64,000 bases of DNA from Alphaproteobacteria bacterium (GCA_017453485.1 JAFTEW010000056.1:5141-69140); one strand, 5' to 3'; shown: positions 30,426 to 34,825, counted from the stretch's first letter. Notes: generated by a model not told the origin, from the sequence alone. Numbers and translations: made by a program.

Positions 30426-31592
30426 CTATTTATATTCAATAACAACGTCCCGTTTTATTTCGGACAACAGTTGTCGTGATATCAATTCCATTTTTTCACT
30501 TTCCAATTGGCTTTGCAACTCTGCATCCGTCGGCATAACCCGTTCTTCACTTTCACTACATTTCATAAAATAAAGCAATCCGGCCGGTGTTTGCATGGGC
30601 CCGGCCACTGTTTTAAATTTTGCCTTTTTTAATATTTGCAAAATATCGGTTGGCAACTGAGCCGGACTGACTCGTCCTTGTTGCAAACTACCCGCTACGG
30701 CATCATCTTTAACTATTTCAACAAAGGTTTTACAACCGCCTTTAACAGGTTGTTGCAACAACGTATTAGCAATACTGTCTGGTGGCACAATGGCCTGAGC
30801 CAATTCCCAGATTTTAATCGTATCACCCCGAACAGCTTCCCGTTTATTCAACATTAAAATTAAAGCATATCCCCCGGATACAGGAATCGGCCGCGACAGT
30901 TGGCCGACCTGCATTTGGTCCAAAATCTCGGCAACATCGGCACCATAGTAATTACGGGTCACACCGCTAACACGCCCACCGTTGACCCGACTGTCCGCTG
31001 TTGAGTGTAATTCAACCATTGTCCCGAAATCGGCCCCATCCTGCAATCGTTGCCAAACGGTTAAAGCTTCCTCTTCTGTTGGCATAACAATCTCGGCAAA
31101 ACTGATGGATTCCCGGCTTAACTCCTTTTTAATAACTTTATGTCTGGCCTGAATTTCCGCCGGTTTTACCGTTAATGTCCGACCGGCCTTTTGCATAACC
31201 CGCAACCAACCTAAATTGGCCGCTGTCTGATTGACCAACGTTTGATAAGGCACGCCCTGCTCGGCCATCATTTTTCGGAATCCCCCCGATGGCAGACCGT
31301 TTTGTGCTTCCAGATGAGCCAAGGCTTCCGCTACTTCTTCATCGGATACTTGAATTTGCTGTTTGGCAATCTCTTGCATTTTAATCCGTTCATCAATCAA
31401 ATCATCCAAAGCCTCTTTACGTAAATCATCGGTTAATTTTCCAACACGACCGGCCTGTTGCAACATGATCATTTTAGCCCGAGACTCCACATCAAAAGCC
31501 GAAATCGGCGTATCATTGACGATTGCTTTTATTTCACCGGCCCAAACCGGCAACCCGACAAGAACAATCCCCAAAATTCCCCAATACTTCAT
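30426..31592 (-). CDS. surA: SurA-like periplasmic chaperone / PPIase
   Basis: Signal peptide. SurA_N-like region. Position between lptD and folD as in many alphaproteobacteria. Confidence 0.7.
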   Translation of the reverse strand: MKYWGILGIVLVGLPVWAGEIKAIVNDTPISAFDVESRAKMIMLQQAGRVGKLTDDLRKEALDDLIDERIKMQEIAKQQIQVSDEEVAEALAHLEAQNGLPSGGFRKMMAEQGVPYQTLVNQTAANLGWLRVMQKAGRTLTVKPAEIQARHKVIKKELSRESISFAEIVMPTEEEALTVWQRLQDGADFGTMVELHSTADSRVNGGRVSGVTRNYYGADVAEILDQMQVGQLSRPIPVSGGYALILMLNKREAVRGDTIKIWELAQAIVPPDSIANTLLQQPVKGGCKTFVEIVKDDAVAGSLQQGRVSPAQLPTDILQILKKAKFKTVAGPMQTPAGLLYFMKCSESEERVMPTDAELQSQLESEKMELISRQLLSEIKRDVVIEYK

Positions 31593-34500
31593 TACATACC
31601 TCCCAACGTTTTCAAAATAACCTTTGCCATAAACGAGATTGAACCTTTATAGTCCCGATCTTGTGTATAGGATTTATCCACCTCAAAAACAAGGGCTGTA
31701 CATTCATTATCATATCGAATGGCCCCACCGGCTTTGACCGGTTCTCCTTTGCCGGATAAATCATAGCGATAAAACCCAGACACGGCAAAATTTCGCGTCA
31801 ATTGACTGGAAGCCGTATAAACGATTTCTTCCCGACCGTCATACCGATTATCCCCGATGGCATAAGCCTTTCGCATCACATAACTGAGTCCCAATCGCAA
31901 CGGTGCCGACCCGACATTCACACCGATTTCATTTTTTTGAGCTTGAAAGGTCTTTTGATCCAATCGGGTCCGATATAAAAACGAAAAGTAAGGAATATTG
32001 ACTTGAACCCGCCCGACATAGTTTGAAAAATGCGGCCCATAGCCCATCAATCCCGTCATCATTTCATCATTATCAAACCGATATGATTGCCCGAACAAAG
32101 CCGAAATAGAACGGCCTGTTTTATGATTAAAGCGTGACCATTTTATTCCGTAATTCAAACGAGTGCCCGGTTCTACCCGATCATATCCCGAAAATCGGTT
32201 GGCGGAGAATAAATCCGTATCATCAAAATCAAAAACAAGACTGTCTATGTTGGGAATTTTTTCCCTGTTTCCACCGTTCGGTGCTGCGACCAACTGAGCG
32301 ATCGGTTCAAAAATTTGTGTTGTATCCTTTTGATTCCGGACCAGGGGATAGGACATCATCACTGATACATTCGGATAAATTCGTCCCGTATTGTATGTTT
32401 CATCTGCTCTGCGTCCGGCAAAGGCATATCTTCCTGTATCTACCGCATATCCGTCCGCCCGAATAAAACCCGTTGTTTCTGTTGCCAATCCCCAGGAGGT
32501 AATATATGGCATTTTAAGCCCCTGAGTCACCGAAAGCCGATTAGATTTAAAATGATCCCGGGTATTAAACATCATTGCATTAACGGCACTGAATCCATAA
32601 ATACCCGTATTTCCAAATGGTTGCGTATTATATTGATAGTCAATCACCGGCAAAATAACGGGTATCGAGTGGCTGCTGACCCCGTCCTGTAAACTTTGGA
32701 ACGAATAGAATTTCGCCCGAAAATAGTTCCGATTACCGAAACGTTCCGCCGTCAAATGGGACGTTAAAAATGGTTCAGTATCATCAATCCCCGGCAGCTG
32801 ATACCGACGGAAATACGTATCTGTCGCCGTTTTATAGAGCCGACCCGATGCTTTCCAGTGCTCTGTTATATCATATTGAAAAGAAGCATCAATATGTCCC
32901 TCTTTGCGGTTATCCCCATGATCTTTTGTGCCACTGGCCTGAATGGACAGGACCCCGGCGGAAAAACGTCCCTGATAATCCAATAATCCCATCGGGAAAT
33001 GTTCAGGAGCGATAATCGGTGTCAAGGTTAGGTTTTGATTATCTGCCATATTGATAAAGTAAGGAACGGATACCCCATGCCGCATCTCGTGCGTGCTACT
33101 GATACTCGGGTTCAAGAAACCACTGCGCCGTTTAACGGTAAAATCAGGCATTCGCCAGTAGGGCATATAAAATACCGGTATATCCTTCACATCCAAAAAA
33201 GCGTGTTTATAGACCAAATCATGATTTTCCGAATCATTCCAAACGGTTTTGGACCGTAACCGCCATAGGGGAGCGACCCCTTCACACACATCACATGGCG
33301 TATAGACAGCCTCGGTCAAATAAGAATCCCCATTTGCCATCCGTTCCATTTTTTCGGCACCTAAATAACTGCCCTCATACATCCGGATATCCGTTTCACC
33401 AGTGACCATCGTACTTAAATCACCGGCCATAATACCGTTTTTCGTATGAGCCTTTGTACCATCTAACATAATAATGGTAATTTGGTTGGGTGCTGTTATT
33501 TGATTTTGTGTTTTATCAAAGGTGATCTGTTCCGTTTGAACAGTCATCGGCCCCTGTTTCAGGACAACATTTCCCGAAGCAACCAATACATTTTGTTTCT
33601 GTTGATAGGCTATTTTATCTGCTTCAAAATCAACGGGAGCCTTTGTATCTATTTTGGCAAACTTAACATCAGCTGCTTGTCCGTTCACGGCCCCAGCAAA
33701 AATAACCATCAAGCACAATGCACCGAAACGGAATAACCTTTTTCCTTTCCTTTTCATTTGCGGATGCAATAAGAACAATGCCGGAGAAAAAACATTCAAC
33801 GCAACAAAGGTTAACCAAAACAAATTATTGCCGGCCATATTTTCAAACATCAAGGCACACGACTGTATTAATAATGCAGCCCCGACCGTTGCATAAATCC
33901 GACCAGACTGTCCCCGACGATTATAGTGCCCCGATAAAATACCGAACATAATCAGGAACATAAAAGTGATATTATACAACGGTTGGACCAGGCGCTTTAC
34001 AAACTCAACCTTATGTTTCCGCCAAAGCGGCGCTCGTCCCCCGACATCGACTTTCTTCTTCATCAGCAACTCCCGCAAAGATAATTCCCGAACATCGGAC
34101 GTTCGGGTACCACTTTTCCCCTTATCGGCAAAACTCATGGTATATTTTTCAAATTTTAAGATGGAAAATTGATTCGTTTTTGGCTGATATTCCTGACGCG
34201 ACCCGTCATGAAATTCAACACGGATACCATCCGGTTCCTGAAAAACAATACCGTAATTGGCCGATAAAATAGATACCCGTTTCGGATCTTTGGCATCATA
34301 GGCTAAAATTCCTTTAACCGTACCATCTTGCGTCCTTTCTTTTACATAGAGTGTTAACCCGTTCCCAACCGAGTTAAATTGACCCTCCTGCAACAATAAA
34401 TGTGACAAATCATTTCTGATTTTCCACTTCATCTCGCGCAACTCCGTATTGGACATCGGAATAATAAAAACAGAGAACAAATATCCCAAAACCGTCAAAA

Positions 34501-34825
34501 CGGCCGCCATCTTAAATACAGGACGCATAATGTCTCTGGGACTCATCCCGACAGCCTGCATTACCATCAACTCTTTATCCGATTGCATGCGAATCAAGGT
34601 AAACAACGTCACGGCAAACAATGCCAATGGCGACAAAACCTGTAAAAAATTCGGCAACACCAAAACCGTTAATTTCAGGAAAACACCGACCGATACCCCC
34701 TTAGTGACAATCATGTCAATCATACGCAGCGACTGCGTTAACCAAACCAAGACCGTCATGCTTGTCAAAACAAGCACAAAACCGACAATTATTTGTTTTA
34801 ACGTGTATCTATCAATAATTTTCAT
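31592..34825 (-). CDS. lptD: LptG-like permease (N-terminal ~365 aa) fused in frame to LptD/OstA (C-terminal ~710 aa). Single 1077-codon ORF.
   Basis: The N-part has YjgP/YjgQ permease topology. At aa ~368 comes ...FLLHPQ-MKRKGKRLFRFGALCLMVIFAGAVNGQA, an LptD-type signal peptide. OstA-N (VLVASGNVVLKQGPMTVQTEQITFD) and the LptD beta-barrel follow. No in-frame stop separates the two parts. An A/G-rich tract (AAAAGGAAAGGAAAAAGG) sits at the junction. Confidence 0.7.
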   Translation of the reverse strand: MKIIDRYTLKQIIVGFVLVLTSMTVLVWLTQSLRMIDMIVTKGVSVGVFLKLTVLVLPNFLQVLSPLALFAVTLFTLIRMQSDKELMVMQAVGMSPRDIMRPVFKMAAVLTVLGYLFSVFIIPMSNTELREMKWKIRNDLSHLLLQEGQFNSVGNGLTLYVKERTQDGTVKGILAYDAKDPKRVSILSANYGIVFQEPDGIRVEFHDGSRQEYQPKTNQFSILKFEKYTMSFADKGKSGTRTSDVRELSLRELLMKKKVDVGGRAPLWRKHKVEFVKRLVQPLYNITFMFLIMFGILSGHYNRRGQSGRIYATVGAALLIQSCALMFENMAGNNLFWLTFVALNVFSPALFLLHPQMKRKGKRLFRFGALCLMVIFAGAVNGQAADVKFAKIDTKAPVDFEADKIAYQQKQNVLVASGNVVLKQGPMTVQTEQITFDKTQNQITAPNQITIIMLDGTKAHTKNGIMAGDLSTMVTGETDIRMYEGSYLGAEKMERMANGDSYLTEAVYTPCDVCEGVAPLWRLRSKTVWNDSENHDLVYKHAFLDVKDIPVFYMPYWRMPDFTVKRRSGFLNPSISSTHEMRHGVSVPYFINMADNQNLTLTPIIAPEHFPMGLLDYQGRFSAGVLSIQASGTKDHGDNRKEGHIDASFQYDITEHWKASGRLYKTATDTYFRRYQLPGIDDTEPFLTSHLTAERFGNRNYFRAKFYSFQSLQDGVSSHSIPVILPVIDYQYNTQPFGNTGIYGFSAVNAMMFNTRDHFKSNRLSVTQGLKMPYITSWGLATETTGFIRADGYAVDTGRYAFAGRRADETYNTGRIYPNVSVMMSYPLVRNQKDTTQIFEPIAQLVAAPNGGNREKIPNIDSLVFDFDDTDLFSANRFSGYDRVEPGTRLNYGIKWSRFNHKTGRSISALFGQSYRFDNDEMMTGLMGYGPHFSNYVGRVQVNIPYFSFLYRTRLDQKTFQAQKNEIGVNVGSAPLRLGLSYVMRKAYAIGDNRYDGREEIVYTASSQLTRNFAVSGFYRYDLSGKGEPVKAGGAIRYDNECTALVFEVDKSYTQDRDYKGSISFMAKVILKTLGGM

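Follow-up and report, generated by a model that had tools for sequence, protein, structure and literature searches.

The 64,000-nucleotide stretch of DNA analyzed here (the window; JAFTEW010000056.1:5141-69140 of GCA_017453485.1, Alphaproteobacteria bacterium) carries on its minus strand a single open reading frame (ORF), which we call lptFD, in which the inner-membrane permease LptF is joined in frame to the outer-membrane barrel protein LptD. Both belong to the lipopolysaccharide (LPS) transport machine, or Lpt machine, which in its E. coli-type form is a seven-protein bridge (including LptB2FGC and LptDE) whose inner- and outer-membrane ends are separately encoded and assembled. That the fused ORF is real and conserved is near certain. 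From the features of the encoded sequence, we consider it likely that the LptF–LptD product is a polyprotein that is processed at an internal signal peptide.

A preliminary description of this DNA had reported a single 1077-codon ORF that encodes an LptG-like permease (residues 1–365) followed by a complete LptD with its own signal peptide and an OstA-N domain. The ORF was borne out, with minus as its strand (Table 1), and so were the signal-peptide-like string (MKRKGKRLFRFGALCLMVIFAGAVNGQA) and the OstA-N domain, which Pfam detects as LptD_N (PF03968; residues 401–458; 24.1 bits versus a cutoff of 20.4). The permease is there as well; it scores, however, as LptF rather than as LptG, and the boundary between LptF and the junction lies at residues 356/357, a shift of nine residues from the end given earlier. 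In particular, the Pfam family LptF_LptG matched residues 6–345 of the protein (E 5e-68), and the permease half returned 235.1 bits with the NCBIfam model for LptF (TIGR04407; cutoff 230) as opposed to 91.3 bits with that for LptG (TIGR04408; cutoff 240). When hidden Markov models (HMMs) of outgroup LptF and LptG were applied segment by segment, the respective scores were 135 versus 23 bits for transmembrane segments (TM) 1–3, 109 versus -3 bits for the jellyroll, and 43 versus 3 bits for TM4–6. Judged by these scores, the permease half is LptF over its full length, and not LptG. (A chimera created by a deletion between LptF and LptG, which we considered as a way to account for the missing lptG discussed below, was ruled out because each segment scored as LptF.)

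In addition to LptD_N, the second half of the protein contains the LptD barrel domain (PF04453; residues 645–1012; E 1e-51; 176.7 bits versus a cutoff of 22.4). The jellyroll of this half (OstA/LptD_N) begins with the motif PVDFEAD at residue 397 (position 33637), and its β-barrel extends to the C-terminus of the protein. Cys511, Cys514 and Cys1042 of the LptD part were invariant in an alignment of 48 sequences, as were dozens of residues in both halves. The NCBI equivalog models for LptD scored below their cutoffs (NF002997, 131 bits versus 683; NF003358, 64.5 bits versus 944), which looks like divergence from these two models rather than non-membership of the LptD family; the Pfam domains and the fold fit LptD.

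An AlphaFold2 (AF2) model of the whole protein, built on 48 sequences, had a mean predicted local distance difference test score (pLDDT) of 78 and a predicted template modeling score (pTM) of 0.53, with the LptF and LptD halves both confident. The model predicts that the LptF half consists of six transmembrane helices (residues 2–42, 46–82, 96–138, 265–297, 307–333 and 335–353) with a periplasmic β-jellyroll between TM3 and TM4 (strands at 150–233) and that TM6 ends at about residue 353; the LptD half is predicted to consist of a jellyroll and a barrel. With Foldseek, the LptF half matched 6mit_F, 9dok_F and 5x5y_F (E 1e-13 to 1e-12), and the LptD half matched 8h1s_A, 5iv9_A and 4q35_A over its full length (E 1e-38 to 1e-33; target-normalised TM-scores of 0.57–0.68); sequence matches agreed, pairing the LptF half with 6mhu_F and 6mit_F and the LptD half with 8h1s, 5iv9 and 4q35. 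At the joint between the halves, AF2 placed a helix at residues 362–378, and pLDDT was below 50 for residues 356–364 and 369–391. Because confidence is low there, nothing in the model suggests that the joint is packed into the structure, and the model does not give the position of this seventh helix.

The junction reads ...FSPALFLLHPQ-MKRKGKRLFRFGALCLMVIFAGAVNGQA-ADVKFAKIDTKAPVDFEAD..., in which the signal-peptide-like string corresponds to residues 357–384 (33674-33757) and the codon of Met357 to 33755-33757. It had been noted earlier that the two halves meet in an A/G-rich tract, ATGAAAAGGAAAGGAAAAAGG, in which an indel of 1 nt would restore a stop. Both observations hold: the tract is present and encodes the KRKGKR of the basic n-region, the +1 frame reads TGA at the sequence ATGA, and a shift of 1 nt upstream would produce a stop codon overlapping the ATG.

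The fusion recurs throughout a lineage. In a collection of 5.8 billion proteins we found at least 120 clusters of fused proteins, 984–1096 residues in length (all but two 1062–1096) and 92% to 47% identical to the window protein; among the matches listed, 117 of the 120 clusters covered 99–100% of the query, and all carried both PF03739 and PF04453. A genome scan that took one genome per GTDB species yielded about 40 loci in which one stop-to-stop ORF runs across both halves, 38 of them complete single ORFs, in uncultured Alphaproteobacteria from sheep, goat, yak, buffalo, roe deer, rabbit and human gut. Most members of the clade are known from the gut or the rumen. The loci that were not complete comprised three cut by contig ends and one that is broken inside the LptD part. 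In the latter, a metagenome-assembled genome (MAG) of the fused clade (JAFPYW010000020; L030:12637-12640), the ORF breaks near residue 517 of LptD, away from the junction, which points to a frameshift from assembly or else to a pseudogene.

The fusion is also found at greater distances. When 1.84 billion cluster representatives were searched exhaustively with HMMER, deeper fused representatives emerged (P0121, P0124, P0127, P0171 and P0212, at 41, 36, 31, 28 and 28% identity, respectively), the other top matches being ordinary LptD proteins of about 700–760 residues. The locus encoding P0212 (L082:8001-11528; ENA ERZ21659590) represents a very AT-rich, distant lineage, in which an ORF for a 1175-residue fused LptF–LptD is followed by a surA-like gene and the upstream neighbors (yidC, topA and a split peptidase M3 gene) are unlike those in the window. 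Since so distant a lineage carries the fusion, the fusion reaches well beyond the gut clade.

Comparison of the junction among related genomes revealed a frame that is open throughout the fused loci. In the closest relative, from a pig-gut metagenome (92% amino acid identity; 89% nucleotide identity at the junction), the alignment is gapless across the junction, with several substitutions in the A/G tract, and ATA stands where the window reads the ATG of Met357. Among 121 proteins (the window protein plus 120 homologues) aligned over the junction, the distance between a proline in TM6 and a proline in the jellyroll took 13 different lengths (47–64 residues); at least 12 indels must therefore have occurred, all of them multiples of three. 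Neither a stop nor a frameshift was present at the junction in the approximately 40 fused-clade genomes. This pattern in the aligned sequences indicates that the frame of the junction is under selection. A real fusion, which was among the causes suggested previously for the missing stop, is thus supported by an ORF that is uninterrupted across the lineage.

Residues 361–390 are the least conserved stretch of the protein (mean pairwise identity of 0.19–0.25 among the 121 proteins). A three-part build nonetheless follows TM6 of LptF in 121 of the 121, and consists of a K/R-rich stretch (net charge +4.6 on average and +1 at minimum), an uncharged hydrophobic stretch, and a small-x-small motif, the variants of which include AQA, AYA, ASA, VMA and SFA. 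At the best site according to a (-3,-1) rule, the residue at -1 is Ala in 117 of the proteins, while the remaining four carry TQA, VMA or ASA slightly downstream; position -3 is occupied by A (70 cases), V (26), S (18) or T (5), adding up to 119 of the proteins. From the last charged residue to the predicted site, i.e. over the h- and c-regions, the median distance is 17 residues (range 11–23), and from the predicted site to the conserved start of the jellyroll (PVDFEAD) it is 13. Five distant fused proteins share the three-part build, with ARA, SNA, AGA, AKA and LFA as their sites. For comparison we used the N-terminal signal peptides of unfused outgroup LptD proteins, in which Ala was present at -1 in 38 of 38 cases and the h- and c-regions had a median length of 17 residues. 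Because the numbers for the joint equal those for genuine signal peptides of unfused LptD, we regard the joint as a signal peptide in all but position: by these measures it is built like a Sec signal peptide, with n-, h- and c-regions and a site of the Ala-x-Ala type.

In solved structures of LptB2FG, LptF has six transmembrane segments and both of its termini are cytoplasmic. Because the C-terminus of LptF is in the cytoplasm, the next hydrophobic segment would be expected to insert N-in/C-out, as a signal peptide does. Judging from the matched LptF structures and the basic loop that follows TM6, the fusion is topologically natural. An inner-membrane permease joined to an outer-membrane barrel had been described as implausible unless the chain is cleaved or translation re-initiates; of this assessment, cleavage is what the evidence favors, whereas the implausibility falls away, N-in/C-out insertion being natural.

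We propose that the ribosome makes one LptF–LptD chain, the six helices of LptF entering the inner membrane and the C-terminus of TM6 coming to lie in the cytoplasm. The K/R-rich loop would remain inside, and the next hydrophobic segment would enter SecYEG N-in/C-out and drive the export of LptD. Signal peptidase I would then cut after the small-x-Ala site, and the released LptD would be passed to SurA, the product of the next, presumably translationally coupled gene, and to the β-barrel assembly machinery (BAM). The signal peptide would stay on LptF, adding a seventh helix that is poorly conserved and moving the C-terminus of LptF to the periplasm. Synthesis of LptD would depend on translation of lptF, resulting in production of the two proteins at 1:1.

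Coupling of LptF and LptD might go beyond their synthesis, either through an uncut conduit for LPS across the envelope or, following cleavage, through TM7 and the co-localized birth of LptD, which would replace partners that are possibly missing; we consider such functional coupling unlikely. Quite improbable, in our view, is a chain that is never cleaved, with the hydrophobic segment of the joint serving as a permanent seventh transmembrane helix and one polypeptide, anchored in both membranes, forming a covalent LptF–LptD link across the envelope. Cleavage is, after all, something we deduce, the fusion joins the two ends of one transport bridge, and the machine may have been reorganized, lptG not having been found near the gene in 45 loci. 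We favor cleavage over a permanent anchor, first, because positions -3 and -1 are conserved, just as in the signal peptides of unfused LptD, while the sequence around them is hypervariable, yet an anchor needs neither Ala at -1 nor a small residue at -3. Cleavage is favored, second, because the hydrophobic stretch is short (a median of 17 residues even when the c-region is included) and because AF2 confidence at the joint is low, the model showing no helix that packs against LptF. It is favored, third, because an uncut chain could not span the periplasm with a link of about 13 residues between the site and the jellyroll, which would hold the barrel to within about 10 nm of the inner membrane. 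A tether of this kind would probably also hinder delivery of LptD to SurA and BAM.

Instead of being cut from a longer chain, LptD could be translated separately from Met357 or its equivalent, with the read-through fusion product being minor or degraded. Indeed, the in-frame ATG of the window sits precisely at the start of the basic n-region, the ATGA layout resembles a former overlapping stop/start, and Met is found within -3 to +5 of the first K/R in 37 of the 121 proteins. This Met is not conserved, however, its codon being ATA in the 92%-identical relative; directly before the first K/R, about 55% of the proteins have F, I or L (most often F or I) and 9% have Met. At the DNA level, none of 39 loci had a Shine-Dalgarno-like motif before an in-frame ATG where the basic stretch begins (positions 8-9), even though the genome makes use of such motifs, which accompany 22 of the 46 gene starts in the window (48%) as opposed to 6.6% of internal ATGs. 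(For all in-frame ATG, GTG and TTG codons of the junction in these 39 loci, we counted nine such motifs, scattered over the loci.) Because Met is not conserved at this position and has no Shine-Dalgarno-like motif, Met357 is not evidence of a second start. Moreover, a separate start for LptD would make frameshifts and stops at the junction harmless, and they should therefore be common; none was seen in about 40 genomes, and the indels, at least 12 in number, are all in frame. Internal re-initiation, as put forward earlier, is not supported as a general mechanism, and we judge it very unlikely.

There is a negligible probability that an indel introduced into the A/G tract by sequencing or assembly removed the stop of lptF, or that the locus is decaying. 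The tract does have short runs of A and the +1 frame does give a TGA at ATGA, but more than 120 clusters and about 40 genomes, assembled independently in many studies and from many hosts, carry the same uninterrupted fusion, at identities of 28–92% and with differing junction sequences. Conservation is strong in both halves, where dozens of residues are invariant, and the relative that is 89% identical in nucleotide sequence at the junction is gapless. These findings refute the assembly error suggested in the preliminary description.

Several considerations weigh against a processed polyprotein. Cleavage by signal peptidase I is inferred, the site having been called with a home-made, heuristic (-3,-1) rule rather than a trained predictor. 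Of the internal controls to which we applied this rule (TM1, TM3 and TM5 of LptF), TM5 scored well in 80% of sequences, owing to one conserved motif; the rule is therefore weak when taken alone, and the signal peptides of unfused LptD are the better comparison. A seventh helix retained on LptF would have to be tolerated by LptB2FG(C). About 30% of the family, including the window protein, keep a Met close to where the basic stretch begins, and some internal initiation may occur there. In addition, lptG, whose product forms the heterodimer with LptF that operates with the LptB ATPase in the canonical transporter, was not located in the 45 loci surveyed (±10 kb) or in the 64-kb window, and every fused member is known from uncultured MAGs.

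The genomic context of lptFD bears on how the fusion arose. Canonical order is lptF-lptG-lptD-surA, which we found in 37 of 37 outgroup loci (from Acetobacteraceae, Acidocella, Roseomonas, Elioraea and others) and also in two AT-rich lineages. In the fused clade the order is corC, aroK, (unknown gene), xerD, lptFD, surA, (rsmA), folD: wherever the contig of a fused locus continues beyond lptFD, surA comes directly next, and the position of xerC/xerD is kept across the clade, whereas the outgroups have other genes there. An HMM made from 38 outgroup LptG proteins detected no lptG in the window, within ±10 kb of more than 40 fused loci, or in L041, the relative described below, and the Pfam gene lists of loci L082 to L086 contained none. 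A search of the protein database for an LptG of the clade, using a profile of three sister-group LptG proteins, returned only LptG proteins at 43–62% identity, together with one truncated match at 94%; the two most AT-rich matches sit in canonical lptF-lptG-lptD operons. Relative to the ancestral order lptF-lptG-lptD, the fused clade has lost lptG at this position.

Among the relatives, a single one, L041 (MAG DAOWDM010000191; L041:10950-11250), has lptF and lptD adjacent and unfused with no lptG between them. There, lptF ends in ...NKGKC and TGA, four nucleotides (aaaa) follow, and lptD begins with ATGATG; an AGGA-like motif lies upstream, and LptD carries its own signal peptide, MMRLILLAILCCFIVQPCFA. 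L041 is like the fused loci in its synteny (xerD-lptF-lptD-surA) and in its lack of an intervening lptG, and unlike them in having separate lptF and lptD genes. In a neighbor-joining tree of concatenated LptF and LptD, all fused proteins plus L041 formed a group with 96% bootstrap support, monophyly of the fused proteins without L041 received 19%, and L041 nested with deep fused lineages. L041 thus represents either the state before the fusion or a secondary fission, and both a single fusion with a later split and several independent fusions are possible. The fusion probably arose by loss of a stop codon, or by a small frameshift, in a tight junction of lptF stop and lptD start like that of L041, and would then have become locked in, lptD having lost its own start site.

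Table 1 Coordinates of lptFD, its parts and other genes of the window (positions counted from the first nucleotide of the window)
Feature	Position	Strand	Remarks
lptF-lptD fused ORF (lptFD)	31592..34825	minus	1077 codons plus TAA stop at 31592-31594
LptF moiety, residues 1-356	33758..34825	minus	PF03739, TIGR04407, AF2 and structure matches
Basic loop, putative n-region of the internal signal peptide, MKRKGKRLFR, residues 357-366	33728..33757	minus	
Hydrophobic h-region, FGALCLMVIFAGA, residues 367-379	33689..33727	minus	Predicted seventh membrane-spanning segment, N-in/C-out
c-region, VNGQA, residues 380-384	33674..33688	minus	Candidate signal peptidase I sites AGA379/V or GQA384/A (cut at the slash)
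Mature LptD (predicted), residues 385-1077	31595..33673	minus	PF03968, PF04453, AF2 strands and Foldseek
Shine-Dalgarno-like AGGA	34832..34835	minus	7-10 nt 5' of the lptFD start codon
surA (periplasmic chaperone of outer-membrane proteins)	30426..31592	minus	ATG overlaps the TAA of lptFD by 1 nt (TAATG)
Shine-Dalgarno sequence of surA, GGGAGG	31599-31604		Inside the 3' end of lptFD
xerC/xerD-type recombinase gene	34829..35773	minus	3 nt upstream of lptFD
PilO-like gene	2415-3734	minus	
Secretin	3743-5389	minus	
TcpQ	5373-6257	minus	
T2SSE-type ATPase	11536-12525	minus	
CagX/VirB9 with SPOR domain	19206-21074	minus	
Two VirB8 genes	21147-21860 and 22146-22781	minus	
Several ORFs without a Pfam match	22787-29476	minus	

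Elsewhere in the window, the region downstream of folD contains a secretion/conjugation-like cluster (1349-29476, minus strand; Table 1). Three of its ORFs without a Pfam match (26696-29476) are conserved beside folD in relatives, and VirB8 genes are also found downstream in L084. A 2208-residue ORF of the cluster (12546-19172, minus strand) encodes six Bflower_2 (5-fold beta-flower) repeats followed by a C-terminal TrbI/VirB10 domain, and is unusually large for a VirB10-like protein. A second ORF of 1077 residues (7600-10833, minus strand) has no Pfam match; phmmer detected no similarity between it and lptFD, and the equal length is a coincidence. Positions 44000-48443 form a low-GC patch (GC of 0.33 at 44–46 kb versus about 0.44 elsewhere) with an 850-residue ORF that gives weak UvrD-helicase-like matches (44379-46931); genes for a GNAT acetyltransferase and an N6/N4 DNA methylase (47730-48443) come next. 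The patch may be an acquired island. The ORF at 48433-49389 (minus strand) is a strong, full-length match to Pfam Mito_fiss_Elm1, the mitochondrial fission ELM1 family (E 4e-77).

A lineage that is common in animal and human guts thus encodes both ends of the Lpt machine in one reading frame. The NCBI pipeline names the fused proteins either 'LptF' or 'LptD', and single labels of this kind hide one essential function in genome-based inventories of LPS transport. No natural fusion of LptF with LptD, or of LptG with LptD, was described in the literature that we searched. If processing occurs as proposed, synthesis of LptF and LptD at 1:1 would be enforced, and LptF would have a seventh helix close to the lateral gate, which is where the helix of LptC sits in known structures. 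It would also offer a natural test case of a barrel that emerges from the end of a polytopic protein and has to be dealt with by Sec, signal peptidase, SurA and BAM. Provided that processing is real, we know of just one other kind of housekeeping polyprotein in bacteria that is cleaved at a signal peptide within the chain, and of no earlier example of a precursor shared by an inner-membrane ATP-binding cassette (ABC) permease and a BAM-dependent barrel.

Both halves of the fusion resemble the canonical, separately encoded proteins; in sequence and in predicted fold, they are an ordinary LptF and an ordinary LptD. The LptD part retains the signal peptide, N-terminal jellyroll and barrel of canonical LptD and has conserved cysteines, and surA follows as it follows lptD in outgroups (lptF-lptG-lptD-surA-rsmA in Acetobacteraceae and other Alphaproteobacteria). 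Unlike the canonical system, the fusion lacks a stop between lptF and lptD, an intervening lptG and a conserved LptD start codon; and unlike canonical LptF, fused LptF would, once processed, bear a seventh helix and a periplasmic C-terminus. The closest parallel in build that we can name is FbcH of Bradyrhizobium japonicum, which Thony-Meyer and co-workers (1989, 1991) reportedly described as a cytochrome b-c1 polyprotein that is cut at an internal signal peptide. As in lptFD, one ORF of an alphaproteobacterium covers two subunits of the same machine, and a polytopic inner-membrane protein that ends in the cytoplasm is followed in frame by a signal-peptide-like segment and an exported partner. 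In contrast to FbcH, whose downstream product is an inner-membrane-anchored cytochrome that faces the periplasm, the downstream product of lptFD is predicted to cross the periplasm and be folded by BAM as an outer-membrane barrel; for lptFD, processing is a prediction. Fused cytochrome b/c1 is typical of Bradyrhizobiaceae (PMC4986455). A more distant parallel is the core-E1 junction of hepatitis C virus, at which, according to PMC5402940, host signal peptidase cuts the viral polyprotein at an internal signal peptide. There too, the internal signal peptide targets the downstream part and stays as the C-terminal anchor of the upstream part, but the setting is the eukaryotic endoplasmic reticulum and viral proteins, as opposed to bacterial Sec and (as we propose) LepB acting on housekeeping proteins of envelope biogenesis. 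What is new in lptFD is the pairing, maintained across a whole lineage, of proteins from opposite ends of the same trans-envelope bridge: an inner-membrane ABC permease and an outer-membrane barrel that depends on BAM.

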